Origin: Gemmatimonadales bacterium
Lineage (GTDB): Bacteria > Gemmatimonadota > Gemmatimonadetes > Gemmatimonadales > GWC2-71-9
Direction of reading: 5' to 3'
Assembly: GCA_050733075.1 (NCBI GenBank)
Contig: JBOHSD010000014.1
Span: 13-64,012 of the forward strand
Length of the DNA stretch: 64,000 nucleotides
The notes beneath the pieces were generated by a model. That model was not told the origin of the DNA, did not search any database, and worked only from the letters and a program-made list of their open reading frames with translations. The position numbers and the translations under genes were made by a program. Positions 2,533 to 53,511 of this stretch are shown here, in pieces (position 1 is the stretch's first letter; each line of letters opens with the position of its first letter).

Positions 2533-3249
2533 CTATGCTGGGCGGGCGGCGACGGCGGCCCCGCCGCGCTCGACACCGGCGAATGCGCTCAGCGTGAGCC
2601 AAGTCGGGAAGGCGCGGACGAGCGACCGCGGCCCATCGAGCCGGATCAGGCCAGCACGGACGGTCTCGGCCAGCCGCACGTCACCCATCCAGACACGTGT
2701 CAGAGTCCGGAGGTCGGCGCTGACCACGATGTCGACCAGAAAACCGGGGTCCTTGAGGCAGAGGTCGACCTCCCGCCGCTCGAGCACGAGCCACCAATAT
2801 TTCGGGCAACGCATGGTCGCCGGCACCCCGCGGAAGTCGAAGCGCACGACGACCCGCTCCGGGGGCAGCGCTTCCAGGTTCACACCCCGGTGGATGTCCC
2901 ACATGAGCAGGCCCGGGTCAAGGTCACCGCGGCCGACCTGTGCCCGGGCCCACCGCTGGCCCCACTCGCCGAGGCACTCGATAAGCGGCCGCAACTCCTC
3001 ACCCGCTGCGGTGAGGTGGTATTCGCGTCCGCGGCCACGCGACCTGGGCACGCTCCGCACGATCCCGGCGTCCTCGAGCTGCTCGAGACGTCCGGCGAGG
3101 AGGGTGCGCGACATCAGGGGCACACCCCGGTGGAGGTCGCTGAAGCGACGGCTCCCGCAGAGCAGCTCGCGCAGGACGAGCGGGGTCCATCGCTCGGCGA
3201 CGATCTCGGCCGCCTTGGCGACCGGGCAGAACTGGCCGTACCCCTTCAT
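2533..3249 (-). CDS. HxlR-family transcriptional regulator with C-terminal extension
   Basis: FCPVAKAAEIVAERWTPLVLRELLCGSRRFSDLHRGVPLMSRTLLAGRLEQLEDAGIV is a canonical HxlR winged helix. Divergent from an oxidoreductase gene. Confidence 0.9.
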   Translation of the reverse strand: MKGYGQFCPVAKAAEIVAERWTPLVLRELLCGSRRFSDLHRGVPLMSRTLLAGRLEQLEDAGIVRSVPRSRGRGREYHLTAAGEELRPLIECLGEWGQRWARAQVGRGDLDPGLLMWDIHRGVNLEALPPERVVVRFDFRGVPATMRCPKYWWLVLERREVDLCLKDPGFLVDIVVSADLRTLTRVWMGDVRLAETVRAGLIRLDGPRSLVRAFPTWLTLSAFAGVERGGAAVAARPA

Positions 3250-9101: not shown

Positions 9102-11609
9102 TTAGCCTACCACCAGATTCAGCAACCGATTCGGCACATACACCACCTTCCGAACCTCCTTCCCCTCCGTAAACCTCCGCACCGCGGAATCCTTCAGAGC
9201 AGCGGCCACGACCGTTTCCTCGTCGGCTCCGCGGGGCACGGTGACCTTCGATCGGGTCTTCCCGTTGACCTGCACCGCTATTTCCACGGTCTCTTCTACC
9301 GTGAGCCGCTCGTCCCAGGTGGGCCATCGCGCGTTGAAGATCGAGGAGTCGTGGCCCAGGCGCTCCCAGTTCTCCTCCGCAAAGTGGGGCGCGAAGGGGG
9401 CCAGCATGACGATCAGGTCCTCCACAATCTCGCGGCTGGCCACGTTCTCGGCGCGGATGGTGTTGACGAACTCCATGAGGGCCGCGATCGAGGTGTTGTA
9501 GCGCAGCTCCTCGAGGCCTTCCGTCACCTTCTTCACGGTCTGGTGCCGCTTGATGTCGACGAGTCGGGAGTCAGGAGTCGGGAGTCGGGAACGTCCGCCG
9601 TTGTCGCTGGCGGCCGTCTCGGTGACCAGGTTCCAGACTTTGTCCAGGAAGCGACGCGGCCCGCTGATCCCCTCGTCCCTGAAGTCGCCGCCCTCCTGGA
9701 ACGGGCCCAGGAACATGAGATACATGCGGAACGTGTCCGCGCCCCAGCGCGCGATGTACTCGTCCGGAATCACCACGTTGCCCCGCGACTTGGACATCTT
9801 GGCCCCGTCCTTCACGATGAGGCCGTGGGCCCGGAATTTCCGGAACGGCTCGTCGAAGTGAAGGTGACCGAGGCCGTGGAGCACCATCGTGATGAATCGC
9901 GAGTACAGCAGGTGCAGCACGGCGTGCTCGTTGCCGCCGATGTAGGTGGTCACCGGCAGCCATTTCCGGGTGCGCGCCGGGTCGAACGGCCGGTCGTCGA
10001 AGTCGGTGCTGGGATACCGTAGGAAGTACCAGGACGAGTCGAGAAACGTGTCGCTCACGTCGGTCTCGCGCCGGCTGCGCCTGCCGCAGATGGGACACGG
10101 GGTGTAGTACCACTCCTCGTGCCGGGCCAGCGGCGACACGCCGGTGTCGTCGGGCTGGAAGTCGTCGATCAACGGGAGCAGGACCGGCAGGTCCTTCTCG
10201 GGCACCGGGACCGCGCCGTGCTCGTCGCAATAGATGATGGGGATGGCAGGCCCCCAGTAGCGCTGGCGGGAGATGCACCAGTCGTGCAGCCGGTAGTTGA
10301 CGATGGCCTTGCCGGCGCCACGCTCGGCGAGCCAGGTGGTGATGGCGCGCTTGGCCTCGGGGACGGTGAGGCCGTCGAACTGGCCGGAGTTGACCAGGAC
10401 GCCGTTCTCGATGTCGACGTATGCCTCGGTAAGCGGAGTTTCGGCCCCTTCGCTGCGCTCAGGGTGACATACGACGCGGACGATCGGCAGGCCGAACTGC
10501 CGGGCGAATTCGAAGTCGCGCTCGTCGTGCCCCGGCACCGCCATGATGGAACCAGTGCCGTACTCCATCAGCACGTAATCCGCGATCCAGACCGGGATCG
10601 GCTTGCCAGTGGCCGGATTAATGGCGTACCCACCAGTGAACACGCCAGTCTTCTCGCGTTCACCGACTTTGCGGGAAACCAGGTCCTTCGCGGCAACGGA
10701 GCGACGGTAGGCATCTACCTCGGCCTTGCGGTCGGGAGTGGTGAAGGCGTCCACCAGCGGGTGCTCGGGAGCGAGCACCATGAACGTCGCCCCGAAAATG
10801 GTATCCGGGCGAGTCGTGAATACCCTGATCTCTTCCACCCTTCCCGTCTTTCCCGCCCTTCCCGCCTTTCCCGCAAACACGATCTCGGCGCCCTCGGAGC
10901 GACCCAGCCAATTCCGCTGGGCCAGCGTGGTGCTCTCGGACCAGTCCATCTTGGTCTTGTCGTCGAGGTCGGCCAGCAGCCGGTCGGCGTAGTCCGTGAT
11001 CCGGAAGAACCACTGCTCCAGCGTCCTCTGCTCCACCACCGAGCCGCAGCGCTCGCACCGCCCATCGATGACCTGCTCGTTGGCCAGCACCGTCTGATCC
11101 TTGGGGCACCAGTTGACCGCGGCCGCCTTCCGGTATGCCTTCCCTGCCTTCAGGAGTTGCAGAAAGAGCCACTGGGTCCACTTGTAGTACGCCGGATCGG
11201 TGGTGGAGAGCTCATGGCGCCAGTCGAACATGCCGCCGATACTTCGGAGCTGACGCCGGAAGTTGACGATATTGCGCGGGATCAACTCGGCCGGGTTGAC
11301 GCCGAGCTTGATTGCGTAGTTCTCGCTGTGAATGCCGAACGCATCGAAGCCGATCGGCTCGAACACGTCGTAGCCTTGAAGACGCTTGAAGCGACCGTAG
11401 ACGTCGCTGCCGGTGAAGGCGAACATGTTCCCCACGTGCAGCCCTTCGGCCGACGGGTAGGGGAACATCATCAGGTTGTAAAAGGGCCGTGCGGCCCGGT
11501 CGAGATCGGGCTCGTTGGTATGCCGCTCCGCCCAGCGCGACTGCCACTTGGCTTCGACCAGATCAGGACGGTAGGGCAGCACGTCGGTTGGTGTGGGATT
11601 CTGCTTCAC
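9102..11609 (-). CDS. leuS: Leucyl-tRNA synthetase
   Basis: FPYPSAEGLHVGN (HIGH region), VFTTRPDT, and KMSKSRGNV (KMSKS). Likely start is the GTG at 11609, just before YRPDLVEAKWQ. The ORF is open up to 11774. Confidence 0.95.
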   Translation of the reverse strand: MKQNPTPTDVLPYRPDLVEAKWQSRWAERHTNEPDLDRAARPFYNLMMFPYPSAEGLHVGNMFAFTGSDVYGRFKRLQGYDVFEPIGFDAFGIHSENYAIKLGVNPAELIPRNIVNFRRQLRSIGGMFDWRHELSTTDPAYYKWTQWLFLQLLKAGKAYRKAAAVNWCPKDQTVLANEQVIDGRCERCGSVVEQRTLEQWFFRITDYADRLLADLDDKTKMDWSESTTLAQRNWLGRSEGAEIVFAGKAGRAGKTGRVEEIRVFTTRPDTIFGATFMVLAPEHPLVDAFTTPDRKAEVDAYRRSVAAKDLVSRKVGEREKTGVFTGGYAINPATGKPIPVWIADYVLMEYGTGSIMAVPGHDERDFEFARQFGLPIVRVVCHPERSEGAETPLTEAYVDIENGVLVNSGQFDGLTVPEAKRAITTWLAERGAGKAIVNYRLHDWCISRQRYWGPAIPIIYCDEHGAVPVPEKDLPVLLPLIDDFQPDDTGVSPLARHEEWYYTPCPICGRRSRRETDVSDTFLDSSWYFLRYPSTDFDDRPFDPARTRKWLPVTTYIGGNEHAVLHLLYSRFITMVLHGLGHLHFDEPFRKFRAHGLIVKDGAKMSKSRGNVVIPDEYIARWGADTFRMYLMFLGPFQEGGDFRDEGISGPRRFLDKVWNLVTETAASDNGGRSRLPTPDSRLVDIKRHQTVKKVTEGLEELRYNTSIAALMEFVNTIRAENVASREIVEDLIVMLAPFAPHFAEENWERLGHDSSIFNARWPTWDERLTVEETVEIAVQVNGKTRSKVTVPRGADEETVVAAALKDSAVRRFTEGKEVRKVVYVPNRLLNLVVG
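9561..9590. repeat. GAGTCGG-family heptamer array inside leuS
   Basis: GAGTCGG GAGTCAG GAGTCGG GAGTCGG GA on the plus strand. On the coding strand it reads in frame as [10 protein letters not shown]. Confidence 0.85.
10445..10468. repeat. Half copy of the GTCACCCTGAG REP-like element inside leuS
   Basis: The coding strand reads GTCACCCTGAGCGCAGCGAAGGGG, translated CHPERSEG. It sits in a length-variable LeuS segment after HDERDFEFARQFGLPIV. Confidence 0.6.
10839..10874. repeat. Four tandem 9-nt repeats inside leuS
   Basis: CCTTCCCGT CTTTCCCGC CCTTCCCGC CTTTCCCGC encodes AGKAGRAGKTGR just before the conserved VFTTRPDT. Confidence 0.8.
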
Positions 11610-11811
11610 TCGCGTCTCGGTGCTCTTCCAGCGCTGGTTGGTCCCGCCCCCGGCCAGGCGCGGTTCCTCGAAGTGGGCGGCCTCGTAGAGAAGCCGTAAA
11701 TCTATTGCCGCTGCGGTGTTAGTGGTACCGGACCGGACCGGTTGACCCGCCGGTCCAACGGCCCGACCGTCCACCCGTCAGCGGGCCCCCCTCTTGCAAG
11801 GCTACGGCTCC

Positions 11812-13101
11812 ATGGCCGCAGCCCGCAATCAGTTCATCTTCCGCCTTCACCTGATCGGCTTCCTCTCCGCGGCTGTGCTGGCCACCGCGGCTGCGGGTAT
11901 CCTCGTCCTGGTCTGTCCGCCCCCGGCACAACCCACGATCCTGGGCGACCCGGTGGTGTGGGGTACCGCACTCATTCTGGCCCTCGGAGTGGCCATGGCA
12001 CAGCTGCTGGTCCGGCTGCTGCTGCAACGGGTACTGAAGCCGACCGGCAAGGCCGCGGCGGTGGCGTTGAGGGTTGCCGGGGGCGACCTCTCGATGCCCG
12101 ACTGGGCCGGCCGCAGCGGTCTGGACGGCCTCTCGACCTCCATAGTAGGAATGGTGACCCGGCTCCAGGAGCTGGTGGGCACCATCCGGCAACACTCACA
12201 CGACGCCGCCGCCATGGCTCAGGAGATCGCTGCCTCCACTCAGCAGATGACCGCATCGACCCAGGAGGTAGCGGGCACCACGGGCGATCTCACCGAGCGC
12301 GCCAACCAGCAAGCCACGGTGGTGCGGGCAGCGGCGGAAGATGCCGGCAAGATCCTGGAGATCGCCCAGGAGTTGGCCGCCGGCGCCACTCAAGCCGCCG
12401 AGCGGAATGCCGCTCTGGCCCGGCTGGCACGCTCTCATAGCGAGCGGCTGGACGAAAGCACCGCGGAGCTGGCGCGCCTGGCCGAGGAAATCGAGCGGGG
12501 CGCTGTTGAGGCAGAGGCGCTCGCCACCGCGTCGGGGCAGATCGAGAAGTTCATCACTCAGGCCAAGGCGATCGCCAAACAGACTCATATGCTCGCCCTG
12601 AATGCTTCGATCGAGGCCGCGCGGGCCGGAGAGGAAGGCCGCGGCTTCAGTGTCGTGGCCGAGGAGGTCCGCAAGCTGGCAAGCCAGGCGGCTCACGCGG
12701 CGACCTCGACCAGCGAAACAGTCCAGACCGTCGTGGCTCAGGTACAGACCGCGCGCGAGCGGCTGATCCGCCTGGGCCGGGGAGGAACGGCCGCTCGAGA
12801 GGCAGCTCACGCCGCGGCAGTCGGGCTGGTTAATGTCGCGGCCGATGCCGAGGCCAACGACGAGTGGACCCGGCGCATCTCGGAGTCAGCCAGCGAGGTA
12901 CGAGGGCTCATCGACGGCATTGCGGCACGGATGCGGGAAGTCTCCGCCGGAACCGAGGAGTACGCCGCCGCGGCCGAGGAGATCGCCGCGGCGGCAGAGG
13001 AGCTCAACGCCTCGACCGAGGAGATTTCGGCCTCCTCGAGCAACCTCGCCGGCGCCGCGGAGAAGCTGACCGGCGCCGTCGGCGGCTTCAAGCTCCAGTG
13101 A
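11812..13101 (+). CDS. Methyl-accepting chemotaxis protein (short, HAMP plus signalling domain)
   Basis: [36 protein letters not shown] is the MCP signalling hairpin. Two N-terminal TM segments. ATG at 11812, inside an ORF that opens with TTG at 11794. Confidence 0.85.
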
Positions 13102-28203: not shown

Positions 28204-28623
28204 ATGCCCAGTTTGGAAACTCTGATCCCTCGCTTTCAGGCGGCTGACCGCAACACCCGGCTCGAGACGCTGCTGGACTATTCCAAGAAGCTGCCTCCAC
28301 TGCCCCAGAAGCTGGAAGCGGAAAAGGAGCTCGGGCACAATCGGGTCCATGAGTGCCAGACCCCGGTCTACCTCTGGGTCGAAGTGGACCAGGGCCGGGT
28401 CAGCATTTACGCGGACGTGCCTCGCGAGTCGCCCACCGTCCGAGGGTTCATCTCGCTGCTGGCCCGGAGTCTCGAAGGCCAGACGCCGGATGCGGTCGCA
28501 CGGATCCCCGACGACCTGCTCGATCAGCTCGGCCTCAGTGAAACCCTCGGCATGACACGGACCCAGGGACTCACGGCCATCCTCCATCAGATCAAACGCT
28601 CAGTGGCAGCGGCGAGCACCTGA
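28204..28623 (+). CDS. sufE: SufE-family sulfur acceptor
   Basis: RLETLLDYSKKLPPLP...HECQTPVYLWVEV...SPTVRGFISLL...GLSETLGMTRTQGL. Confidence 0.85.
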   Translation: MPSLETLIPRFQAADRNTRLETLLDYSKKLPPLPQKLEAEKELGHNRVHECQTPVYLWVEVDQGRVSIYADVPRESPTVRGFISLLARSLEGQTPDAVARIPDDLLDQLGLSETLGMTRTQGLTAILHQIKRSVAAAST

Positions 28624-29744
28624 TGCTCGGCGTCCTCGAGGTCGCCGGCAGAGGGAGTGGTTTCCTGCGCCGGCGTGAGGCGAGCTATCTCCCGTCGCAT
28701 GGCGACGTCCACGTCGGTGAGCGGCTCATCCGTCAGTTTGGTCTCCGTACCGGCGACGAGATAGCCGGCTCGGTCCGTGCGGCGGGCAAAGGCAAGAGCG
28801 CCTCGCTCGAGACCATTACCGCCGTTCAGGGAAAGCCGCCCGACATCCTGCGCGAGCGCCCCGAGTTCGGCCGCCTGGCCGCGGTGCACCCCAAGGAGCA
28901 GCTCAGGCTGGAGTTCTCCCCCGAGGCCGGCGCACAGCCCGACTACACCAACCGGGTCATCGACCTGCTGGCTCCGCTCGGGAAAGGGCAGCGCGCCCTG
29001 ATCGTCGCTCCCGCCAAGGCGGGCAAGACGATGGTGCTCCAGGCCATCTCCCAGGGCGTGAGCCGCAACTACCCCCACGCCGACCTGTTCATACTGCTGG
29101 TGGACGAGCGCCCTGAAGAGGTGTTCGAGATGGAAGCGGCAGGGGTGGGGGAAGTTGTGGCTTCGAGCTTCGACAACCCCGCTCAGCGCCACGTCGCAGT
29201 GGCCGAGCTGACGCTGGAGCGGGCCCGGCGGAGAGTCGAGATGGGAGACGACGTGGTTCTGATCGTGGATTCTCTCACCCGGCTGGCGCGAGCCTACAAC
29301 ACCGTCGAGAAGGGTACCGGCCGCACGCTTTCCGGCGGGTTGGACGCCCAGTCACTGGAGAAGCCGAAGCGGTTTCTCGGCAGCGCGCGGCGCATCGACC
29401 CCGCGCAAGGCGGCGGCTCTCTCACCATTATCGCCACCGCCCTGGTGGACACCGGCAGCCGGATGGACCAGGTCATCTTCGAGGAGTTCAAGGGCACCGG
29501 AAACAGCGAGCTAGTGCTGAGCCGCGAGCTGGCGGAACGGCGGATCTACCCGGCCATAGACCTGGTGGCGAGCGCCACCCGGCGGGAGGAGCTGCTGCTC
29601 TCGAATGAGGCTCTCGCCGCGTCTCGCCTCCTGCGCCAGCGTATTGCCGCCATGACTCCGATCAACGCCATGAACGATCTGCTGACCGATATGCGGCGCC
29701 ACAGGACCAACGAAGACCTGGTCCGGGCGCTCAACGCCGGCTGA
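28623..29744 (+). CDS. rho: Transcription termination factor Rho, lacking the N-terminal helical (Rho_N) subdomain
   Basis: Begins at the CSD-like RNA-binding segment (GVLEV...GSGFLRR). [46 protein letters not shown]. Its ATG overlaps the sufE TGA by 1 nt. Confidence 0.9.
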
Positions 29745-30174
29745 TCAGTTCCCCACCGACCTGGCTATGGCGTCCAGTCTGGCATCGATCACCGCGGTGT
29801 CTCGGGTGGCCCAGCATGCCACGTATGGTGGTGATGCCGCCGGACACGTAGAGAAACAGGGTGCGCTCTATGACGCTGTCCGGCGTCTGTCCACCGGGTA
29901 TGTGCGCATGCATCTCGGCCAGGCCGGGAATCAGGAACCTGCCGCGGCCATCCACGCTTACGCCGCCGGCAGGAACCTCCACGCGATCGGCTGGCCCGAT
30001 GGCCACGATCCGCTCGCCTCGGACCACCACCGTCACACCCGGCAGCGCGCGCTCCCGATCCATCGGGATCACGGTGACGTTTACGAAGGCGATGACCGAA
30101 TCCAGCTGCCTGACCGGTTGCCCCGAGAGCAGGAGGAGCAGGGTGGCGTACAGCAAGGGGTCAGCTCCTGGCAC
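29731..30174 (-). pseudogene. N-terminal fragment of a metal-dependent amidohydrolase
   Basis: FVNVTVIPM...VVVRGERIVAIG...VDGRGRFLIPGLAEMHAHI carries the HxH motif. The match stops after ~125 aa and the ORF ends at 147 aa. It is wedged between the rho and serC 3' ends with 14-nt overlaps. Confidence 0.5.
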
Positions 30175-31267
30175 CGGCCGGGCGGTTTGCCCGCTCGAAC
30201 TCCTTCATGAAGGCCACCAACGCCTCGACCGCCGCGCGAGGACAGGCGTTATAGATGCTGGCGCGCATTCCGCCGACCGACCGGTGCCCCTTGAGCCCGT
30301 CGAGCCCCTTCTTGGTGGCGTCCCTTACGAACTTTTCTTCCAGCTCCTCGGTGGGAGCGCGGAAACAGACGTTCATCCGCGACCTGCTGCCGGGCTCCGC
30401 CGTGCCGCGGAAGAACTCGCTGGTGTCGAGGTAGTCGTATAGAAGGCGGGCCTTGATCTCGTTCTGCTCCGCCATGGCCGCCAGACCCCCCTGCCCTTCG
30501 ATCCACTTGAATACTTCCCCCATCACGTAGATGCCGAAGGTAGGCGGGGTGTTGTAGAGCGACCGCTCGGCCGCATGGGTCCGGTACTGGAGCATGGTCG
30601 GCAAGGTCTTGGGACCCGCCTCCACCAGATCGTCGCGGACGATCACCAGGACTACACCGGACGGACCCAGATTTTTCTGGGCACCCGCGTAAATCACCCC
30701 ATACTGCTTGATATCGATCGGCCGGCTATACATGTCGCTCGAGGCATCGGCGACGAGCGGTGCGCTGGCCGGCAGTTGAGGCTCCCGTTGCCACTGGGTG
30801 CCGTAGATGGTGTTGTTGGTCGTGATGTGTACGTATGCCGGATTGGCCGAGTAGCGGATCTGATCGGGCCCGGGGATCCGGTCGAAGTTGGTGGCTTCGC
30901 CGCTGGCTGCGATGTGCACCTTGGCGACCTGCCTGGCCTCCTTGACCGCCTTCTGCGACCAGACACCAGTCAGGAGATAGTCGGCCGTCCGGTCACCGGA
31001 CAGGAGGTTCATGGGCACCATCGAGAACTGCAGTGAGGCACCACCCTGGAGGAACAGCACCCGGTAGTTGTCGGGTACATCTCCCAATCTGCGGCACGCG
31101 TCCTCCGCCTCGGTGATGACCTTGTCGAACACCTTTCCCCGATGGCTGTGCTCCAGGATCCCGATCCCGCTGCCGGCCACGTTCCAGATGGCCTCCTGTG
31201 CCTTCTGTAGGACGGGTTCGGGCAGGACTGCGGGGCCGGCGCTGAAGTTGTGGATGCGATCGGGCAT
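30161..31267 (-). CDS. serC: Phosphoserine aminotransferase
   Basis: [32 protein letters not shown], and [18 protein letters not shown]. Confidence 0.95.
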
Positions 31268-31408
31268 GGGAGTCGGAAGTCTGGGGTGGAGAGTCGAGAG
31301 ACTACAGTCGAGAGTCGAAAGTCGAGAGTCGAAAGTCGAAGGTCTAAGATAATCTCGGGGGCCGGCCTGAGAGTCCGGTCGAGACTCCCGACTCCTGACT
31401 CCCGACTA
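31268..31408. repeat. Inverted heptamer-array element (GAGTCGG family) filling the serC-serA gap
   Basis: Left arm: 7-nt periodic GTCGA at 31307, 31314, 31321, 31328, 31335 (plus 31293). Right arm: GACTC at 31383, 31390, 31397 and GACTA at 31404. The serA TAG (31406-31408) is part of the last unit. Confidence 0.85.
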
Positions 31409-32632
31409 TTCCCGCGGCTCGCGCCCGTCGAGCTCGCTCAGCTCGGCACTGATGATGTCGCGGTTGCCCTGGCGGATCCGGTCCAGCGCGGACGGACCGG
31501 GCTGGCCATCAAGGTGGATCCGGGCCAAAGTGGCGTGGGCCCCATGATAAATGATGTTCTCCACTTCTTCTACGTTGATGGAGGCCCCTGCCAGCACCCC
31601 GAAGACGTGGGCGAGCACGCCCGGCCGGTTCCGGTGGCGGATCGTCAGAACATGCGTCGCCGAGCTTCGGGCCAGCCGGTTCACTACGTTGGGAACCTCG
31701 CCGGTGGCCTTGAATGATTGCACGATCCGGATCACCTCGTGCGCGATGGCCACCTGTGCCTGGTCGGTCGAAGCCCCCACGTGGTGGGTCCCGTAGACCC
31801 CGGGAGCCTGCACAATCGGGTTGGAGAACTCGCCGCCGGCGGCTGGCGGTTCGTTCTGGTAGACGTCCAAACCAACCCGGATTCCCTTCTCCCGTACCGC
31901 GGCCTCCAGGGCGGCCTCGTCCACTACCGACCCCCGGGACGTGTTGATGAGGTAAGCGCCCGGCTTCATGGCAGCCAGGAACTCTGCGTTTACCAGGTTC
32001 CGGGTTTCCTCGGCGCCGACCACGTTGATGGTAACGGCATCTGCCAGCCGGGCGATCTCCAGGGGAGTCTGCGCGTAAGCCAGCTCCAGACGGTCGGCCT
32101 CCTCGTGCGTCAGGCTGCGGGACCAGGCGACGACCCGCATCCCGAACGCCCGGGCTCGGGCGGCAACCTCCCGGCCGATCTGCCCCAGCCCCACGATTCC
32201 CAGCGTGCGGCCGTAGAGCCCGCGTGCCTTGGAGAACTCGGCCTTGTTCCATTTGCCCTGGCGCAACTGGGCCACCTGGTCGGGAATGCGCCGGTCGCAG
32301 GTGAGCAGCAGCCCCAGGACCAGCTCCGCGACCGCAATGGAGTTCTTGCCGGGACAGTTCGAGACGAAGACGCCCAGGTCGGAAGCCGCGGCCACATCGA
32401 TGGTATCGATCCCCGCACCCGCCCGGATCACCAGGTTCAGCGCGGTTCCGGCCCTGAGTGCCTCGGCATTCACCTTCTTGCTGCGGACGATCAGAATGTG
32501 CGGGTCGATCTGCCTGATCAGTGCCGCGAGCGCCTCCGCCTTTACTCCGGGCTCGGAAATCACCTTGCAGCCGAGCTCCTCGAGGCCGTCCATACCGACT
32601 TTGTCGAATTTGTCGGCGATCAGAACCTTCAT
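31406..32632 (-). CDS. serA: D-3-phosphoglycerate dehydrogenase with C-terminal ACT domain
   Basis: GIVGLGQIGREVA, NTSRGSVVDEAAL, HVGAST, and an ACT-like C-terminus. Confidence 0.95.
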   Translation of the reverse strand: MKVLIADKFDKVGMDGLEELGCKVISEPGVKAEALAALIRQIDPHILIVRSKKVNAEALRAGTALNLVIRAGAGIDTIDVAAASDLGVFVSNCPGKNSIAVAELVLGLLLTCDRRIPDQVAQLRQGKWNKAEFSKARGLYGRTLGIVGLGQIGREVAARARAFGMRVVAWSRSLTHEEADRLELAYAQTPLEIARLADAVTINVVGAEETRNLVNAEFLAAMKPGAYLINTSRGSVVDEAALEAAVREKGIRVGLDVYQNEPPAAGGEFSNPIVQAPGVYGTHHVGASTDQAQVAIAHEVIRIVQSFKATGEVPNVVNRLARSSATHVLTIRHRNRPGVLAHVFGVLAGASINVEEVENIIYHGAHATLARIHLDGQPGPSALDRIRQGNRDIISAELSELDGREPRE

Positions 32633-32653: not shown

Positions 32654-32768
32654 GGGAGAGTCGGGAGCTGGGAGCTGGATGTTGTAGGCCAGCAGACTTT
32701 CGACTGCGGACTCCTGACGAAGAGTCCTGACTTCCTACCCCCGACTCCCGACTCCCGACTCCCGACTA
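32654..32768. repeat. Inverted heptamer-array element (GAGTCGG family) filling the serA-DUF1015 gap
   Basis: Left arm GGGAGAGTCGGGAGCTGGGAGCTGG (32654-32678). Right arm GACTC at 32743, 32750, 32757 and GACTA at 32764. The TAG of the DUF1015 gene (32766-32768) is part of the last unit. Confidence 0.85.
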
Positions 32769-33992
32769 TTCTAACAGATGCACAAACAACCCGCTCCTGA
32801 GCTTGGGCTCGAACCAGGTGCTCTTGGGCGGCATGACGGCGTCGGCGTCGGCTACCGCCATAAGCTGCTCGAGAGTCGTCGGATACAACGAAAACGCAAT
32901 CGCCATCTCCCCCGACCTGACCCGCCGCTCCAGCTCGGCGGTGCCGCGAATCCCACCCACAAAGTCGAGGCGCTGGTCGGTGCGCGGATCGCCGATGCCC
33001 AGGATGGGACCGAGTACCCGGTCCTGGAGCAGCGAGACATCCAGTGACCCGATGGGGTCCCGCCGATCGATGCTCTGTTCGTCAAACTCCACCCGGTACC
33101 AGGCGTCCGCCAGGTACGCGCAGAACGTGCCGGGACGCGGTGGCCGGGGATGATCGGTGGTGGAGATGCGGCCGACGTCGCGCAAAGCGTGAAGCACCTC
33201 GGCGGCCGACCTTCCGCCCAGATCGCGTACCATCCGGTTGTAGGGCAAGATGGTGAGCTGGTCGGCCGGAAACAGCACCGCGAGAAACCAGTTGTACTCC
33301 TCGTCTCCCTGGTGCCTGGGGTTGGCGGCTCGGCGCTCCTTCCCCGCACGCCAGGCGCTGGCCGAGCGGTGATGGCCGTCGGCGACGTAGGCGTGAGGCA
33401 CGCCCAGGAAGGCGTCCACCCAGGGCGCCGGATCTGGTATGCGCCAGACCGTGTGGCGAACCCCGTCCGGGGCCGTGAAATCGTAGAGGGGCTCGGTGCC
33501 CAGCACCGGCTCGGAGAGCACGTCGATCTCGCCGCGGCTACGATAGGTGAGGAACACCGGCTCGGCATGAGCACCCAGAGCCAGTACATGGCGGGTGCGG
33601 TCGTCCTCCTTGTCGGGGCGGGTCTTCTCGTGCTTTCGGATCACATTCTGCTCGTAATCATCGATGTGGACGCAGCCTACCAGGCCGGTCTGCGCCCTTC
33701 CGCCCATGATCTGACGATACAGATAAAGGGCCGGGGCTCCCTCCCGAACGAGAACGCCGCCAGCCAGAAACTCCCAGAGCGCCTCGCGCGCCCGGGCGTA
33801 GATGCGGGGATCGTGGGGGTCGATCTCTGCGGGGAGGTCGATATCCGAGCGGCCGACATGCAGGAAGCTGTGCGGATTTCCCCGCGCCAGCTCCACCGCC
33901 TCAGCCCGGTTCACCACATCGTAGGGGACTGCCGCAACTCTGGCCGCCACCTCCGGGGCCGGCCGGACCGCGTCAAAAGGATGAAGTCGCAC
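32766..33992 (-). CDS. DUF1015-family protein
   Basis: MRLHPFDAVRP...VAAVPYDVV...HEKTRPDKEDDR...YVADGHHRSASA. Commonly linked to serA/serC. Confidence 0.85.
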   Translation of the reverse strand: MRLHPFDAVRPAPEVAARVAAVPYDVVNRAEAVELARGNPHSFLHVGRSDIDLPAEIDPHDPRIYARAREALWEFLAGGVLVREGAPALYLYRQIMGGRAQTGLVGCVHIDDYEQNVIRKHEKTRPDKEDDRTRHVLALGAHAEPVFLTYRSRGEIDVLSEPVLGTEPLYDFTAPDGVRHTVWRIPDPAPWVDAFLGVPHAYVADGHHRSASAWRAGKERRAANPRHQGDEEYNWFLAVLFPADQLTILPYNRMVRDLGGRSAAEVLHALRDVGRISTTDHPRPPRPGTFCAYLADAWYRVEFDEQSIDRRDPIGSLDVSLLQDRVLGPILGIGDPRTDQRLDFVGGIRGTAELERRVRSGEMAIAFSLYPTTLEQLMAVADADAVMPPKSTWFEPKLRSGLFVHLLE

Positions 33993-46193: not shown

Positions 46194-47219
46194 ATGTCAC
46201 GGCCGGTCTCCCGCCGCACCTTTTTGGGAGCGAGCGGTTTCGCGGCGGCAAGCGTTGCGTTGCCATCGATCCCTCCGGCGGTCCTCCGCGGGAGCGCGAG
46301 TCGACCGGCAGCGGTGAGCTCGGCCAACGGTCTCCCCGCGGTCAACCGCGCCATGGAGCTGATGCTTGGCGGCACCGACACGCTCGATGCGGCCGTGGAA
46401 GGCGTCAAGATCCAGGAGCTCGACCCGGCTGACAATTCGGTTGGCTACGGCGGCCTTCCCAACGAGGATGGCGTGGTTCAGCTGGATGCGTCGTGCATGC
46501 ACGGTCCGACTCGACGGGCAGGAGCGGTGGCGGCGCTGGAGGGGATCAAGACGCCGAGCGAGGTGGCGCGGCTGGTGCTCAAGTATACCGATCACATCAT
46601 GCTGGTGGGCGAAGGCGCCAAACGTTTCGCGCTCTCGTACGGCTTCAAGGACGAAGATCTGCTGACTCCCGAGTCGCGGCAGCTGTGGCTCACCTGGCGC
46701 GCCAACCGGGGGCCGGAGGACGACTGGCTCGACGTCCCCGAGGACGAGCCCATGGTGGCCCGGCCCACCGGCACGATCAATCTGAACCTGGTGAACTCGC
46801 GGGGCGAGGTCTCCTCCGTCACTACGACCAGCGGGCTGGCCTGGAAGATCCCGGGTCGCGCGGGGGACTCACCCATTGTGGGCGCGGGCCAGTATACCGA
46901 TAACGATATCGGGGCCGCCGGGTCCACCGGTCGGGGCGAGGCGAACATCCTGGCCTGCGGCGGGTTCTTGACCGTCGAGAACCTGCGGCGGGGACTCAAG
47001 GCGACCGATGCGTGCCTCGAGACGCTGAAGCGGGTGGTGCGGATCACTCCGCCCCGTCTGCTCCGGAATGGCCGCCCGACGTTCAATCTGAACTTTTATG
47101 CGGTGAGCAAGCAGGGCGACTTCGGGGCCGCGTCGCTCTATCCGGCTCGCTACGCGGCGCACGACGGCAAGGACGGAGCCCTGCGCGACACGGCCTACCT
47201 CTATCAGAGGCGGGCGTGA
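46194..47219 (+). CDS. Ntn-hydrolase of the asparaginase 2 family (isoaspartyl peptidase / glycosylasparaginase-like), Tat signal
   Basis: MSRPVSRRTFLGASGFAAAS is a twin-arginine signal. GTINLNLV holds the nucleophile Thr. GAAGSTGRGEANI. Confidence 0.85.
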   Translation: MSRPVSRRTFLGASGFAAASVALPSIPPAVLRGSASRPAAVSSANGLPAVNRAMELMLGGTDTLDAAVEGVKIQELDPADNSVGYGGLPNEDGVVQLDASCMHGPTRRAGAVAALEGIKTPSEVARLVLKYTDHIMLVGEGAKRFALSYGFKDEDLLTPESRQLWLTWRANRGPEDDWLDVPEDEPMVARPTGTINLNLVNSRGEVSSVTTTSGLAWKIPGRAGDSPIVGAGQYTDNDIGAAGSTGRGEANILACGGFLTVENLRRGLKATDACLETLKRVVRITPPRLLRNGRPTFNLNFYAVSKQGDFGAASLYPARYAAHDGKDGALRDTAYLYQRRA

Positions 47220-48361
47220 CGGGGCGGGTCGCTCTGCTCCTTCCCGTACTGCTCTGGGCTGCGCCGCTGGTGGCGCAGGAAGCCGAGGAGCGGGAGCGGA
47301 GCACGCCCTGGCGCACCAGTTACTTCCCCTATCTTACGGGCGGCACCAACGATGGACCGGTGCTCGCTTTCCGGGTCCATCACTGGCAACCCGCGCAGTA
47401 CGAAGACCGGGTCACCGCCAATGGGGCACTCACCGCCGACGCGGGCATCACCCATCGCGGCAGCCGCCACGCCTACGTCAAGTTCCGGGCCCCCCAGCTG
47501 CTGAACGGATGGCGGATCAACCTGCTCGGCGCCGCGGCGCGGGAGGCGCGCTTCGGCTACTTCGGGCTGGGAAACGATACCGAGTACAACGGAGATCTCG
47601 TCACCAGGACGCAGCCGTTCCTATACCGGGTCCGGCGAACCCGTTACACCGGGCAGGTCGAGGTCACCAAGCTGATCGGGGGGCCGCTGCAACTCGCCAT
47701 TCTGGGAAACCTGGAGAAGGCGCGGTTCACCTCGCTGCCCGGCCCCTCGTTGTTCCGCTCGGACTTCTCCACCGAGCTGGACCAGACCGATGCCTCGGGT
47801 CGACTGGCTTTCGTGTACGACACCCGGGATAACGAGTTCAACACCCATCAAGGACTTTTGCTCGAGGGTGGCGCGCAGATCGGCAGCGGGGGGAGTGGCT
47901 ATACCCGGCTGTATGCCATACTCCGAGGCTATGTCACTCCGCGCGAGGGCACCGTAGTGGCGACGCGGCTGGTCGCGTCGGGGATGGGGGGTGGCCCGAC
48001 GCTGGATGCGCGCTTCACCATTCCGGGTTGGGAAAAAGAGATCCCGGTGCTGGGGGGTCAGTACTCCCATCGCAGCTTCGATACCGGGCGCTTCGCCGGC
48101 CGCCACCTGATCTTTGGAAATCTAGAGGTCCGCCACGACCTTCTGGCGTTCGGCGATCTCGGCGCCATTACACTGCTGGGATTCGTCGATGCGGGGCGGG
48201 TGTTCGAGCAGGAGTCTTTCGGGCTGACCACCGATGGCGTGAAGGTGGGCGGGGGCGGCGGAGTGGCGCTCCGGATTCTCCGCTCGACCATATTCACCTT
48301 CAACTTTGCCGGCGGCCCGGACGGCTTCAACTATTCGGTGGGAACCGGGTGGATGTTCTAG
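47216..48361 (+). CDS. BamA/TamA-family outer-membrane protein (surface-antigen D15 beta-barrel only)
   Basis: The GTG at 47216 overlaps the upstream TGA (GTGA). Signal LLLPVLLWAAPLVAQ. C-terminal ...FNYSVGTGWMF aromatic terminus. Confidence 0.75.
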   Translation: MTGRVALLLPVLLWAAPLVAQEAEERERSTPWRTSYFPYLTGGTNDGPVLAFRVHHWQPAQYEDRVTANGALTADAGITHRGSRHAYVKFRAPQLLNGWRINLLGAAAREARFGYFGLGNDTEYNGDLVTRTQPFLYRVRRTRYTGQVEVTKLIGGPLQLAILGNLEKARFTSLPGPSLFRSDFSTELDQTDASGRLAFVYDTRDNEFNTHQGLLLEGGAQIGSGGSGYTRLYAILRGYVTPREGTVVATRLVASGMGGGPTLDARFTIPGWEKEIPVLGGQYSHRSFDTGRFAGRHLIFGNLEVRHDLLAFGDLGAITLLGFVDAGRVFEQESFGLTTDGVKVGGGGGVALRILRSTIFTFNFAGGPDGFNYSVGTGWMF

Positions 48362-48363
48362 AG

Positions 48364-48398
48364 GCGGGGAAGCGGGGGAGCGGGGAAGCGGGGAAGCG
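48364..48398. repeat. Tandem octamer array (GCGGGGAA x4) starting 2 nt after the TAG stop
   Basis: GCGGGGAA GCGGGGGA GCGGGGAA GCGGGGAA GCG, between convergent genes. No inverted partner seen. Confidence 0.8.
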
Positions 48399-50237: not shown

Positions 50238-50396
50238 GTGAAGGCCGTGAACGGTGAACGGTAAACGGTTAACGGGTACATGATTGCGGGAGAATGGTGA
50301 ACCGGCCCATCCCTTCCCCCCGTTCACCGTTCACCGTTCACCGTTCACCGTTTACCGTTCACCGTTCACCGTTTACCGTTCACCGTTCACCGTTCA
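50238..50396. repeat. Inverted heptamer-array element (GTGAACG family) in the divergent SDH/TetR intergenic region
   Basis: Left arm: GTGAACG GTGAACG GTAAACG GTTAACG (50247-50274), plus GTGAAGG at 50238 and GGTGAACC at 50297. Right arm 50320-50396 is 11 uninterrupted units (9 CCGTTCA, 2 CCGTTTA). Confidence 0.9.
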
Positions 50397-50432
50397 CGCC
50401 CTTCATCTCTCACCTCTTACATTCATCATCAC

Positions 50433-51051: not shown

Positions 51052-51810
51052 TCACCGCTCCCGTCTCCCCTCAAAAAACGTCAGCTGCCTCGGCCGGGCC
51101 GGCAGATTCGACCACGCGGGCCGGCGGGGACGCCCTGGGCCCAGGGGCCGGACCTCGAGCCTATCGTTCACGAAGTATCCCACCGAATCACTCCCCCAGC
51201 GCACCGGGTCACGCGCGCCGCGGGCGAGGAGACCGGGCGCTCCGGTATCCGCCACCACGCACAGGTCGCCACCCGTCTCACACGGCACCGCCCGGGCGAA
51301 CACCGGGTCGCCCAGCAGCACCGCCAGGCTCGACTCCGCGCGCGCGCGTTCGCCGGCCGGCACCGCCCGGGCATCCCGGGCCGCGGGCGGCGAGCCGACC
51401 CGATAAAGGCCGTTAGCCGTCGAGACGATCACCGATTGTCCACCCCGCTCCCAGCCGACTCGCAGGGGCTGTCCAGCGCCCCTGGGCAGCCGGAGCTCGC
51501 GTTCCCCACCGCTCAGCAGGCTCATGACCCAGACGGTGGCAGGGGTAGAGTCGTTGACCGATGCACTGCGGAAGAACGCCAACCTGGCGCCGTCGGGCGA
51601 GAGGGCCGGCCTCAGCTCGGCGATGTTGCTGAAGGTGACCCGGACCGGGGAGCCCCCCTGGGGACGCGCAGCATAGAGATCACCATTGAGACCGCCACCA
51701 ACGAAGACGGCATATGGGTCTCGCCCGACCTCCATCTGGCCGCGGAGCGGAGGGAGCGTGGGATCGCAGGCGGTCAGAAGTAAGAGGTGAGAAGTGAGAA
51801 GGGTTGTCAC
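51052..51810 (-). CDS. TolB-like beta-propeller (PD40 repeat) protein, possibly a lipoprotein
   Basis: LRPALSPDGARLAFF is a PD40 motif. Putative GTG start at 51810 gives VTTLLTSHLLLLTAC, a lipobox-like signal encoded by the heptamer array. Alternative ATG at 51735 has no signal. Confidence 0.55.
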   Translation of the reverse strand: MTTLLTSHLLLLTACDPTLPPLRGQMEVGRDPYAVFVGGGLNGDLYAARPQGGSPVRVTFSNIAELRPALSPDGARLAFFRSASVNDSTPATVWVMSLLSGGERELRLPRGAGQPLRVGWERGGQSVIVSTANGLYRVGSPPAARDARAVPAGERARAESSLAVLLGDPVFARAVPCETGGDLCVVADTGAPGLLARGARDPVRWGSDSVGYFVNDRLEVRPLGPGRPRRPAWSNLPARPRQLTFFEGRRER

Positions 51811-51933
51811 CCTGAGGGCGCGGCCGCGCCCGAGGGGCCGGAGCTTGAATTGTGCTTCGGCCCCCTCGCCTGCGCTGCGCTTCGGCTCAGGGTGACACCG
51901 CATTCCCCTCACTTCTTACTTCTCACCTCTCAC
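51773..51933. repeat. Composite element: GTGAGAA-family heptamer arms flanking a GTCACCCTGAG...CTCAGGGTGAC REP-like palindrome
   Basis: Left arm GTCAGAA GTAAGAG GTGAGAA GTGAGAA (51773-51800). Palindrome arms at 51806-51816 and 51886-51896 enclose the internal palindrome GGCGCGGCCGCGCC and the hairpin CGAGGGGCCG/CGGCCCCCTCG. Right arm CCCTCAC TTCTTAC TTCTCAC CTCTCAC (51906-51933). Confidence 0.85.
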
Positions 51934-53511
51934 TGTGCTTTTGAGCAGCCACCAGCCGTGGGGATCGACCTGGATGCTGGCGGGCTTCCGCCTGATTCCC
52001 TCGAGCACCTTGCGGGTCTTCCTTCCCTCGATCGCCACCCGCACCGGTTTTCCATCAACCAGTAGCTCGAGAGCCGGGATTCGATAGGCGCCCCACTCCG
52101 GCTTTTGGATCTGCTCGATCTCGAGCGTCAGCTTCCCTCCCTGGTGACGCCAGTGGATCTCCAGCACCGGATAGCCCGGCTGAGTCAGCGCCTGCCGGAA
52201 GTACCACTCGAGATCCTGCCCCGCGGTCTGGGACATTACCCGGGCGAAATCGCCGGAGAGCGCGGTACTGTCCTTATAGGCCGAGTAGTAGCGCCGCAGC
52301 CCGCCGAAGAAGGTGGAGTCTCCCAGGATACCACGGAGCTGATGCAGTACCCACGCACCTTTCTCGTAGCTGTTGCTGTTGAGCAGCCCGAGCAGATCGG
52401 ACGTCGCAGTATCTACCACCGGCCGCTCGCTGGCGGGGGAGTCGAGAATCTCGGCTGCCGCTCCCGCCATTCTGGAGCGGAAGGCGCTGTCGCCCTCGGC
52501 GTGAGCGGTCCAGAGGGCGGAGAGATAGGTGGCGAACCCTTCCGACAGCCAGAGATGCGGCCAGTCCAACGGGGTGACCGAGTTGCCGAACCACTGATGC
52601 CCGGTCTCGTGGGCTACCAGCGCCTCGTTCAGCTTCTTGCTCCGGTAGAGCTTCTCGTCGTAAAAGATCGCAGTGGCGTTCTCCATGCCGCCGAACCTGG
52701 TGCTCGACTCGACGTGGGCCAGGCTGGGATAGGGAAATGGAGCGATCAGCCGGCTGAAGTACTCCAGCATCTCGCCGGCCCGCCGGAAGGCCCTGGTAAC
52801 AGCGTAGGCCGAGTCGAGGGGGTAGGTCCAGACGGTGAGCGGCACGCACTTGATCGCGCAGGCAGCGTCCGGCAGAGCGGTACGGGCGAACTTGCCGACG
52901 CCCGCCACCATGGTGTATACCGGCACCGGAGTGTCCAGGCGGTAGTGCCACATCGCGCTGCCGTAGGGCAGCGTGTCGATTTTCTCCAGCACGCCGTTAG
53001 CGATCACCTGGTGCTCGATAGGCACCTCGACGTGAAATGCGACAGTCGCCTTGTCGCTGGGGTGATCGCGGGAAGGGAGCCAGAGGTGAGCCCGGTTGGG
53101 CCAGTTGTCGGCGAACAGGGTGCGCTGGCCGTATTGGTTGTTGCGAATGATCAGCCCATCGCGGGTGAAGCCGCGGTAGCGCACCCGGGTGCTGATCGAA
53201 TCGCCCGGCTGCTTTTGATGCGGGATAGCAATGTAGTCCTCCGACCGGCCATACATGGTGCGGGAGAGCCGGGTGTTGGGTTTACCGTCCACCAGAACCC
53301 GGATCACCCGCATGGCGGAGTCGAGCTGCATCGTCACCGGCTCGGCGGAGCGGAGCCGCCATGTGGTCTGCACTTCGCCTAGGACGTGGGTGCCGGTGTC
53401 GCTGGGCACGAGGGTGATGTCGTAGTGCAGCGCGTCATGCACCGCGCCGACCGAGTCGGCCCAGGCGGCGAGGGGAGACTGGGATTGCAACAGGAGAATC
53501 AGGGGGAGCAT
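51916..53511 (-). CDS. M1-family zinc aminopeptidase (aminopeptidase N-like)
   Basis: GGMENAT, HETGHQWFGNSV (HExxH), and WLSEGFATY. The last codons (VRGEK) and the TAA stop lie inside the heptamer array. Confidence 0.9.
   Translation of the reverse strand: MLPLILLLQSQSPLAAWADSVGAVHDALHYDITLVPSDTGTHVLGEVQTTWRLRSAEPVTMQLDSAMRVIRVLVDGKPNTRLSRTMYGRSEDYIAIPHQKQPGDSISTRVRYRGFTRDGLIIRNNQYGQRTLFADNWPNRAHLWLPSRDHPSDKATVAFHVEVPIEHQVIANGVLEKIDTLPYGSAMWHYRLDTPVPVYTMVAGVGKFARTALPDAACAIKCVPLTVWTYPLDSAYAVTRAFRRAGEMLEYFSRLIAPFPYPSLAHVESSTRFGGMENATAIFYDEKLYRSKKLNEALVAHETGHQWFGNSVTPLDWPHLWLSEGFATYLSALWTAHAEGDSAFRSRMAGAAAEILDSPASERPVVDTATSDLLGLLNSNSYEKGAWVLHQLRGILGDSTFFGGLRRYYSAYKDSTALSGDFARVMSQTAGQDLEWYFRQALTQPGYPVLEIHWRHQGGKLTLEIEQIQKPEWGAYRIPALELLVDGKPVRVAIEGRKTRKVLEGIRRKPASIQVDPHGWWLLKSTVRGEK

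Follow-up and report, generated by a model that had tools for sequence, protein, structure and literature searches.

An inverted pair of heptanucleotide repeat arrays between serA and serC in a Gemmatimonadales genome

Two opposed arrays between serA and serC

The element described here lies between serA (phosphoglycerate dehydrogenase) and serC in a 64,000-nt stretch of DNA (“the window,” G+C content about 65%) from contig JBOHSD010000014.1 of assembly GCA_050733075.1, the metagenome-assembled genome of an uncultured member of the Gemmatimonadales. Both genes are read from the minus strand, and the 138-nt gap that separates them (31268-31405) holds two opposed arrays with a period of 7 nt: the unit GGGAGTC on the arm that follows the serA stop codon and its complement, drifted to GACTYTC, on the arm that precedes the serC start codon. 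The element is an inverted pair of heptamer microsatellites with at least three head-to-tail copies of the unit; its parts are listed in Table 1 together with the related arrays of the window. An identical SerC is encoded on a second assembly (GCA_975305025.1, contig CDHZYM010000036.1), and every named close homologue of SerC (82-87% identity) is labelled “Gemmatimonadales bacterium.”

On the sense strand the gap is entered as GAA-TAG-TCGG..., with the serA TAG followed directly by TCGGGAGTC. The two arms differ greatly in length, with 3.6 units in one and about 10 in the other. The longer, start-proximal arm opens with TTCGACT TTCGACT CTCGACT TTCGACT CTCGACT GTAGTCT CTCGACT and runs through about ten units of the form CGACTYT/CCGACTC, the last of which ends 3 nt short of the serC ATG. 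Tandem Repeats Finder (TRF) reported period-7 arrays at 31289-31339, 31306-31344, and 31383-31407 and a 14-nt super-period across 31270-31339. The core of the start-proximal arm complements the G-rich arm once G-U pairs are allowed; the best Watson-Crick partner of the G-rich arm is found in the degenerate outer units next to serC, which also carry a CCCGAC motif that is conserved upstream of serC in relatives.

The initial annotation of this gap proved to be a real observation with accurately read coordinates: GTCGA recurs every 7 nt (starts at 31307, 31314, 31321, 31328, and 31335, with an extra copy in register 14 nt away at 31293), GACTC does so in the other arm (31383, 31390, and 31397), and the serA TAG does lie inside the terminal unit. 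Two of its statements hold in part. The gap has the length given, but it is not “essentially all repeat,” since about 29 nt (31340-31368), or roughly a fifth, are non-repeat; and the start-proximal arm does reach the serC ATG in register (AGTC at 31271, 31278, 31292, and 31306), but its last three units are degenerate.

Table 1. Parts of the serA-serC element, its flanking genes and related arrays in the window.
Feature	Position	Strand	Detail
DUF1015 gene	32766-33992	minus	
Sister GAGTCGG array after DUF1015	32725-32774	minus	DUF1015 stop TAG forms the first bases of AATAGTCGGGAGTCGGGAGTCGGGAGTCGGGGG
Partner arm of the sister array	32654-32678	minus	sense CCAGCTCC CAGCTCC CGACTCTCCC
serA, phosphoglycerate dehydrogenase	31406-32632	minus	open reading frame (ORF), 408 aa
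serA stop codon TAG	31406-31408	minus	first three bases of the terminal unit TAGTCGG (plus strand CTA)
G-rich arm adjoining the stop	31383-31408	minus	sense TAGTCGG GAGTCAG GAGTCGG GAGTC, 3.6 units; TRF and register check
Inner palindrome GAGTC-TCGACCG-GACTC	31369-31387	minus	at the arm's inner end; local stem in the minimum-energy fold
Spacer or loop	31340-31368		non-repeat, about 29 nt, sense AGGCCGGCCCCCGAGATTATCTTAGACCT
Core of the start-proximal arm	31289-31339	minus	about 7 units TTCGACT/CTCGACT, 14-nt super-period
Degenerate outer units, in register	31268-31288	minus	sense CTCCACC CCAGACT TCCGACT CCC, then serC ATG
serC start codon ATG	31265-31267	minus	no upstream Shine-Dalgarno motif
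serC	30161-31267	minus	ORF encoding SerC
Third GAGTCGG array	9556-9595	plus	4.3 units, inside the leucyl-tRNA synthetase ORF (9102-11774, minus)
Element of the third unit family	51772-51934		arms GAGAAGT / CTTCTCA; stop TAA of the upstream ORF inside the array

Period-7 arrays in the window and in relatives

The serA-serC element belongs to a set that extends across the genome, with at least eight intergenic heptamer elements of this type in the window. When the window was scanned for periodicity, period 7 alone was enriched: it had 145 high-scoring positions, whereas period 8 had 7 and periods 4-6 and 9-12 had none. The spaced motif AGTC-N3-AGTC-N3-AGTC occurs 10 times in the window versus 0 times in 100 dinucleotide shuffles. 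In the related loci (513 kb), 31 arrays have period 7 and no other period between 4 and 12 has more than 3, so that period 7 is over-represented relative to the other non-triplet periods in both. Eight period-7 loci of the window fall into three unit families, namely GAGTCGG (three loci), GTGAACG/GTAAACG (four loci), and AGAAGTG. The possibility that no further GAGTCGG arrays would turn up, raised in the initial annotation, can be set aside: two more are present in the window, the three together being dispersed and mostly non-coding (Table 1), and others occur in related Gemmatimonadales.

Five of the heptamer loci in the window sit between co-directional genes and share one layout on the sense strand: a stop codon in or beside the first unit, a purine- or G-rich arm, a spacer, a complementary C-rich arm, and then the start codon of the next gene. 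By orientation, arrays are present in 5 of 36 co-directional gaps, 1 of 10 divergent gaps, and 0 of 11 convergent gaps, and the genes that flank them are unrelated housekeeping genes without a common function. In the sister element upstream of serA, the partner arm is followed by the serA Shine-Dalgarno motif AGGAG and the serA ATG at 32632. In the third GAGTCGG array the C-rich strand is the sense strand of the leucyl-tRNA synthetase gene and encodes part of a variable linker before the anticodon-binding domain; this linker lies between the catalytic and anticodon-binding domains, and an in-frame array within an essential gene is unusual.

For the orthologous region (gene order OpuAC-DUF1015-serA-serC-(amidohydrolase)-rho-sufE) we compared four long contigs and 80 metagenome loci; numbers such as L124 are labels of compared loci from other genomes. 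The serA-serC gap of the relatives ranges from a 4-nt overlap (ATGA) up to 160 nt, and the long gaps usually hold an inverted array pair of another unit: AGTCGCC in L124, GGTCNTT / AACGACC in L131, AGTGCAG / CACTCTG in L145 and L146, and AGTCTTC / GAAGACT in L149, with GAGTCGG in L129 and a single case of period 8 in L148. Elsewhere the two genes overlap or abut, through ATGA (L133, L134, L137, L142, L154) or TAATG (L141, L144). The DUF1015-serA gap forms a graded series, from 4-23 nt with nothing or a single AGTCGCGA, through 20 nt with CAGTC-AC-GACTG (L132), 38 nt with two units (L129), and 63-75 nt with arrays (L123 and L124), to 116-171 nt with arrays and long spacers (the window, L127, and L131 at 133-166 nt, along with L137 and L142). 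Units at these two gaps in the relatives include AGTCGCC, AGTCACC, AGTCGAG, GGTCGTT, and AGTGCAG; other relatives have gaps reduced to AGTC..GACT palindromes of 10-20 nt or have overlapping genes.

Within the clade of at least 78% SerC identity, 11 of 13 distinct DUF1015-serA gaps retain an AGTC/GACT element just past the stop, and the AGTC core is nearly constant while the three remaining bases take at least seven states (GGG, AGG, GCC, ACC, GAG, GAA, TAG). A GANTC methylation site as the conserved core was ruled out, as relatives carry CAGTC. Both serA-region gaps of one genome use one family in the window and in L123, L124 (AGTCGCC), and L131 (GGTCGTT), and separate loci likewise share a unit family on contigs L128 (two loci) and L176. 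The arms of a pair have diverged from one another (GGG vs. GAG/GAA in the window, AGCT vs. AGTC in L123), and they are nevertheless complementary in all six array-filled serA-serC gaps despite the differing units. Of the 20 inverted pairs that are not tied, 18 have the G-rich arm in first place. Such an order is identical whichever strand is read; its equivalent on the sense strand is the rule that G-rich arms follow stops and C-rich arms precede starts. Taken together, the site is old and the unit changes. The earlier suggestion that the design, and not the sequence, is conserved is thus upheld, both by at least three families of one layout in the window and by orthologous gaps that hold inverted arrays of differing units.

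Several further observations concern the arrays themselves. In the Gemmatimonadales locus L026 (about 2598-2800, minus strand), AGTCAGG, AGTCGCC/AGTCATC, and AGTCACG arrays abut in succession, indicating that one tract can change its three variable bases along its length. The array-free locus L125 has the octamer AGTCGCGA three times in 9 kb (2725, 3960, and 7566), two of the copies standing directly after the DUF1015 and serA stops and the serA copy forming a hairpin TAGTCGCG-ACC-CGCGACTA; this octamer may be a single-unit seed or a remnant of arrays. As a genome-wide motif it is not over-represented (6 observed, 7 expected, 3 of the 6 in L125). Strain-level copy-number variation was not seen, the only other assembly of the locus being identical. 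In the window, a GC-rich palindrome, GGTGTCACCCTGAG...CTCAGGGTGACAACC, that is unrelated to the heptamers sits within the element at 51772-51934, and the whole folds at -96.6 kcal/mol (z = -7.6); the palindrome GTCACCCTGAG was not found in any of the compared loci. The divergent gap between the saccharopine dehydrogenase and TetR genes (50240-50404, 151 nt) consists almost entirely of GTGAACG/CCGTTCA arrays and has no obvious space for two promoters. The longest-ORF start of the dehydrogenase (50281) reaches into the array, and since the Pfam domain begins only at residue 35, this start was probably called too far upstream.

Among the few non-heptamer arrays is one of period 8, GCGGGGAA in 4.4 copies (48364-48398), which sits in a convergent gap 3 nt past the stop of the ORF at 47012-48361 and has a canonical G-quadruplex motif. 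Two coding repeats, both with periods divisible by three, are unrelated to the heptamers: one of 9/18 nt (AGKAGRAGKTGR) in the leucyl-tRNA synthetase gene (10838-10874) and one of 21 nt (12944-13024) in the ORF at 11794-13101. Downstream of serC, the amidohydrolase gene (29731-30174, minus strand) encodes only 141-147 aa and overlaps the end of rho; at this position L123, L124, and L127 have a gene of 450-452 aa and L125 has none, and the short gene of the window is probably a truncated remnant. Rho of the window (28623-29744, plus strand) has 373 aa, like that of the relatives (372-373 aa), and its alignment begins at profile position 53 of Rho models of 413-415 residues; about 50 residues at the N terminus of the standard protein seem to be missing from Rho in this clade. 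No tRNA or tmRNA was found in the window.

Origin of the pair and competing explanations

We consider it about an even bet (a probability of roughly 0.5) that the heptamer pair grew in place by slippage and acts, if at all, as a structural intergenic hairpin. The seed would have been a short AGTC..GACT palindrome beside a stop codon, of the kind still visible in relatives with gaps of 20-40 nt, and each arm would then have expanded independently by replication slippage in steps of 7 and 14 nt. We infer this growth from the graded series of gaps, from the 14-nt super-periods, which point to slippage of whole units, and from the independent drift of the arms, which is what independent expansion should produce. 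Because a 7-nt unit breaks the reading frame, growth would halt at the stop codon on one side and at the start region on the other, so a filled gap with the stop codon inside the terminal unit would need no special mechanism.

In the serA-serC transcript the arms could pair in many registers, giving a long imperfect stem from the serA UAG to 3-5 nt before the serC AUG; the minimum-energy fold pairs the G-rich arm with the degenerate units farthest out, so the stem runs from the A of UAG to about 5 nt before the AUG. Across loci, array-bearing gaps fold better than their dinucleotide shuffles (z from -2 to -7.6), array-free gaps not at all (z about 0). The role, if there is one, would be structural and independent of the unit sequence, resembling that of repetitive extragenic palindromes (REPs) and not a sequence-specific signal: an intergenic hairpin of this type may serve as a barrier to 3' exonucleases or as an RNase III target, and may slow ribosomes at the stop codon. 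We favor such a REP-like function on the indirect evidence of the complementarity kept across differing units and of the post-stop element kept in 11 of 13 close-clade gaps. Selection at gene boundaries can account for the fixed arm order, as G/T-rich arms would be disfavored before true starts, where their GTG and TTG codons and GGAG-like motifs would do harm; single arrays follow the orientation rule as well, making boundary selection more economical than an addition of repeats at DNA ends.

Not all of the evidence sits well with slippage followed by hairpin function. Compared with dinucleotide shuffles, the fold of the serA-serC gap is marginal (z = -2.1, or -1.4 when flanks are included). 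In 18 gaps the antisense strand folds as well as the sense strand, so that nothing singles out selection on the sense RNA, and selection through G-U pairs was accordingly ruled out. The unequal, drifted arms fit neutral decay as well as they fit function, and slippage alone leaves unexplained why the period is only 7, why the AGTC core is fixed, and why families are shared within a genome. An alternative is that the arrays are a neutral by-product of slippage from a small palindrome, without function and bounded only by selection on the flanking coding sequences. It is a possible, if less probable, account of the locus as a whole, and set against REP-like function in particular it is nearly as likely. 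Units, copy numbers, and even presence turn over fast among relatives with 67-87% SerC identity; some of these apparently manage with overlapping genes or with array-free gaps of 18-39 nt; the arms drift apart without any folding bias between strands; and the flanking genes, as in Xanthomonas, have no common function. A purely neutral by-product is harder to reconcile with the retention of the element past the DUF1015 stop (11 of 13 gaps), the strong orientation rule, the conservation of the core next to three variable positions, and the common unit family of neighboring gaps in one genome.

The features that slippage leaves unexplained (the 7-nt step, the AGTC core, and family sharing) keep alive the idea that the unit is dictated by a factor specific to each genome. 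This could be a protein that recognizes a 4-nt core at 7-nt intervals on RNA or single-stranded DNA, much as HutP and TRAP recognize their repeated sites, or an enzyme that adds templated repeats. That the unit is set genome-wide in trans, and not locus by locus, is improbable in our estimation, and unlikely too is the broader explanation by such a factor. This idea would join the strict 7-nt step, the core with its three free positions, the sharing of families, and the arm order. An enzyme could write arrays onto 3' ends at intergenic breaks or stalled forks that are then joined (the order of a G/T-rich arm followed by a C/A-rich arm is the geometry of a head-to-head telomere fusion), or the arrays could persist as docking sites for a protein that reads nucleic acid in 7-nt steps. 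The footprint of a cold-shock domain is about 7 nt. Separate loci of one genome share a unit and genomes differ, and GGAGTCR units occur in more than 10 phyla among the matches listed (see below), as a factor would predict. Yet no candidate protein was found, the three unrelated families of the window would require several factors, and the 14-nt super-periods and drifted arms resemble slippage, not templated addition; the core, moreover, may persist simply through descent from one ancestral AGTC..GACT palindrome. If true, either version would provide an explanation of the repeat class.

Translational coupling, in which the stem would bring the serA stop to the serC start for re-initiation or unmasking and so replace an ATGA overlap, is very unlikely. 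It would fit the ATGA or TAATG junctions of several relatives, the predicted stem between stop and start, and the lack of a Shine-Dalgarno motif before serC. The suggestion that serC initiation depends on the hairpin was not supported by constrained partition-function folding: with a ribosome footprint placed on the serA stop, the energy needed to open the start rose from 7.8 to 10.1 kcal/mol, the start staying closed because the periodic arms re-pair in another register. There was no consistent effect in six array-bearing orthologues and no consistent trend in 12 other loci, and unmasking of the start by the ribosome was rejected. Array-bearing gaps are no more closed at the start than array-free ones, and similar arrays either precede a good Shine-Dalgarno motif 20-25 nt outside the stem, as at serA (GGAG 6-8 nt upstream in all relatives, outside the array), or sit between divergent genes. 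Nor can the array be blamed for leaving no room for a ribosome binding site, as first proposed, since serC is without a Shine-Dalgarno motif in the array-free 18-39-nt gaps of relatives too. In the window such a motif precedes 21 of 58 crudely called starts, against a background of 17%.

A G-quadruplex regulatory element, as proposed for the Xanthomonas GGGAATC repeats, is at serA-serC close to refuted on sequence grounds. The unit GGGAGTC is one base from GGGAATC, in vitro formation has been demonstrated for related units (PMC4692102), and the sister array has a canonical (G3+N4)x4 motif (at 32763), alone among the GAGTCGG-family arrays. The serA-serC arm, however, has only two G3 tracts, short of the four or more of the G4 subclass of Rehm et al., and no (G3+N1-7)x4 motif exists in 31268-31408; the partner arm and the GTGAACG and AGAAGTG families are incapable of forming one yet have the same layout, and relatives carry AGTCGCC, AGTCACC, or GGTCGTT at the same sites. 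Least credible of all is an inserted mobile element, such as a miniature inverted-repeat transposable element (MITE) or a REP-like unit, or an intrinsic terminator, even though inverted arms, an intergenic location, and many copies per genome would suit either, and the element at 51772-51934 encloses a long unrelated palindrome. Spacers of one family share no sequence, there are no target-site duplications, conserved interiors, or clean empty and filled sites, and orthologous sites differ gradually; a mobile element was rejected on the lack of a shared spacer and of a clean insertion. As for a terminator or promoter, the gap has neither a short GC-rich stem with a T-run on either strand nor a sigma-70-like promoter, arrays are absent from the 11 convergent gaps, and no Rfam 15 family matched anywhere in the window at the gathering score. 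Growth in place with a possible hairpin role thus remains our preferred reading of the pair.

Comparison with known repeat classes

Heptamer repeats as a bacterial class were first reported in about 1990; the name STRR (short tandemly repeated repetitive) and the cyanobacterial units CCCCAGT, TTGGTCA, and CAACAGT reportedly go back to Mazel et al. in 1990. They are the one class of long microsatellites that is systematically over-represented in large, GC-rich and cyanobacterial genomes. A scan for four GGAGTCR units, with one genome per species, gave at least 120 stretches. Among the matches listed, the hosts are Cyanobacteria (the majority), Chloroflexales, Gemmatimonadales, Acidobacteriota, Verrucomicrobiota, Planctomycetota, Bacteroidota, Nitrospirota, Bacillota, and Xanthomonas/Lysobacteraceae; these 120 loci hold 283 arrays of period 7 and 20 of period 8, and every other period between 4 and 12 has 8 at most. 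Other units make up about 150 of the 283 (79 unit types overall), from which it follows that proneness to heptamers is a property of whole genomes. In the same 120 loci the end of a long ORF lies no more than 30 nt away on the G-rich strand in 36 cases and on the C-rich strand in 16, an inverted partner exists in only 9 across all phyla, and outside the repeats there is no nucleotide similarity to the window. We found no mention of the GGGAGTC unit in the literature, nor of heptamer arrays in Gemmatimonadota, nor any newer mechanistic work on bacterial heptamer arrays.

The closest known system is the GGGAATC repeat of Xanthomonas (Rehm et al., 2015, PLoS One, PMC4692102), whose intergenic arrays lie mainly between co-directional genes. 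On the coding strand they are G-rich where they overlap a stop or lie within 50 nt of one and C-rich before starts, and each genome has 70-75 convergent inverted pairs. In sister species the sites are kept and array length and sequence vary, and neither a functional bias of flanking genes nor a function was identified; the heptamer excess, in the account that this paper gives of Mrazek et al. (2007), was suggested to reflect the DNA segment held by the polymerase. The serA-serC element follows these placement rules, with tandem G-rich 7-nt units, a convergent pair, and a stop overlap, and its layout is therefore not new. GGGAGTC units continue directly from GGGATTC units in single arrays of Xanthomonas/Lysobacteraceae (L014, L047), which puts the serA-serC unit in the same family in a broad sense. 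It differs in its Gemmatimonadales host, its unit, and its lack of G-quadruplex capacity and of a preference for four units; the genome of the window also has non-G-rich families of one layout, and its orthologous sites differ in unit.

Cyanobacterial heptamers (e.g., GGGGA(C/T)T in Nostoc PCC 7120) resemble the present case in having several abundant intergenic families per genome, and GGAGTCR arrays themselves are common in cyanobacteria. Those arrays are mostly single and direct, with “only a few” inverted partners in Nostoc (PMC4692102), whereas the serA-serC element is an inverted pair. A Nostoc preprint describes modest reporter effects upon deletion of a heptamer and speculates on an unknown binding protein. 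The TAACTGA repeats of marine Beggiatoaceae are likewise intergenic heptamers close to start codons and are patchily distributed across phyla, suggesting transfer or convergence; a post-transcriptional role has been proposed for them, not demonstrated (MacGregor, 2015, PMC4679880). Unlike the serA-serC arrays, they are nearly all direct (one inverted), A/T-rich, present in 2-6 copies, and placed upstream of starts instead of being joined to stop codons.

For function the best analogy is with the REP and REPIN elements. In Enterobacteria and Pseudomonas these are intergenic hairpins, often right after stops, in genome-specific families of many copies; they are known to protect mRNA 3' ends and to stall ribosomes at the stop codon, and Liang, Rudd & Deutscher are said to have placed REPs within 15 nt of stop codons in 2015. 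REPs are imperfect palindromes of about 35 nt whose sequence is fixed and whose head, GTAG, is conserved; the REP-associated tyrosine transposase (RAYT) moves them. They are not tandem heptamers, and the serA-serC element has no conserved non-repeat core or fixed 20-40-nt palindrome with a conserved head, only the 7-nt unit being common. The binding sites of the ring-shaped regulators HutP (UAG-N4, three times, period 7) and TRAP (GAG/UAG, 11 times) are similar to AGTC plus three variable bases in combining a constant short core with a fixed short period; a genome has only one or a few of these sites, located in specific leader RNAs, without an inverted partner or a link to stop codons.

The value of the locus resides in the comparative series and not in the single gap. 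The serA-region gaps of genomes that are 67-87% identical in SerC are empty, hold a 10-nt palindrome, or carry arrays of at least eight units, a series that separates growth in place from insertion and hairpin from G-quadruplex and that shows where to seek a trans factor. Heptamer arrays also mark true gene boundaries and can mislead the calling of start codons, as with the saccharopine dehydrogenase ORF. Measured against the known systems, the serA-serC element is an ordinary member of the intergenic heptanucleotide class of Xanthomonas and cyanobacteria; what is new is its host in the Gemmatimonadales, from a phylum in which such arrays had not been described, together with the turnover of the unit within the same gap among relatives, the sharing of families within a genome, and a G-rich arm that nearly always stands 5'.

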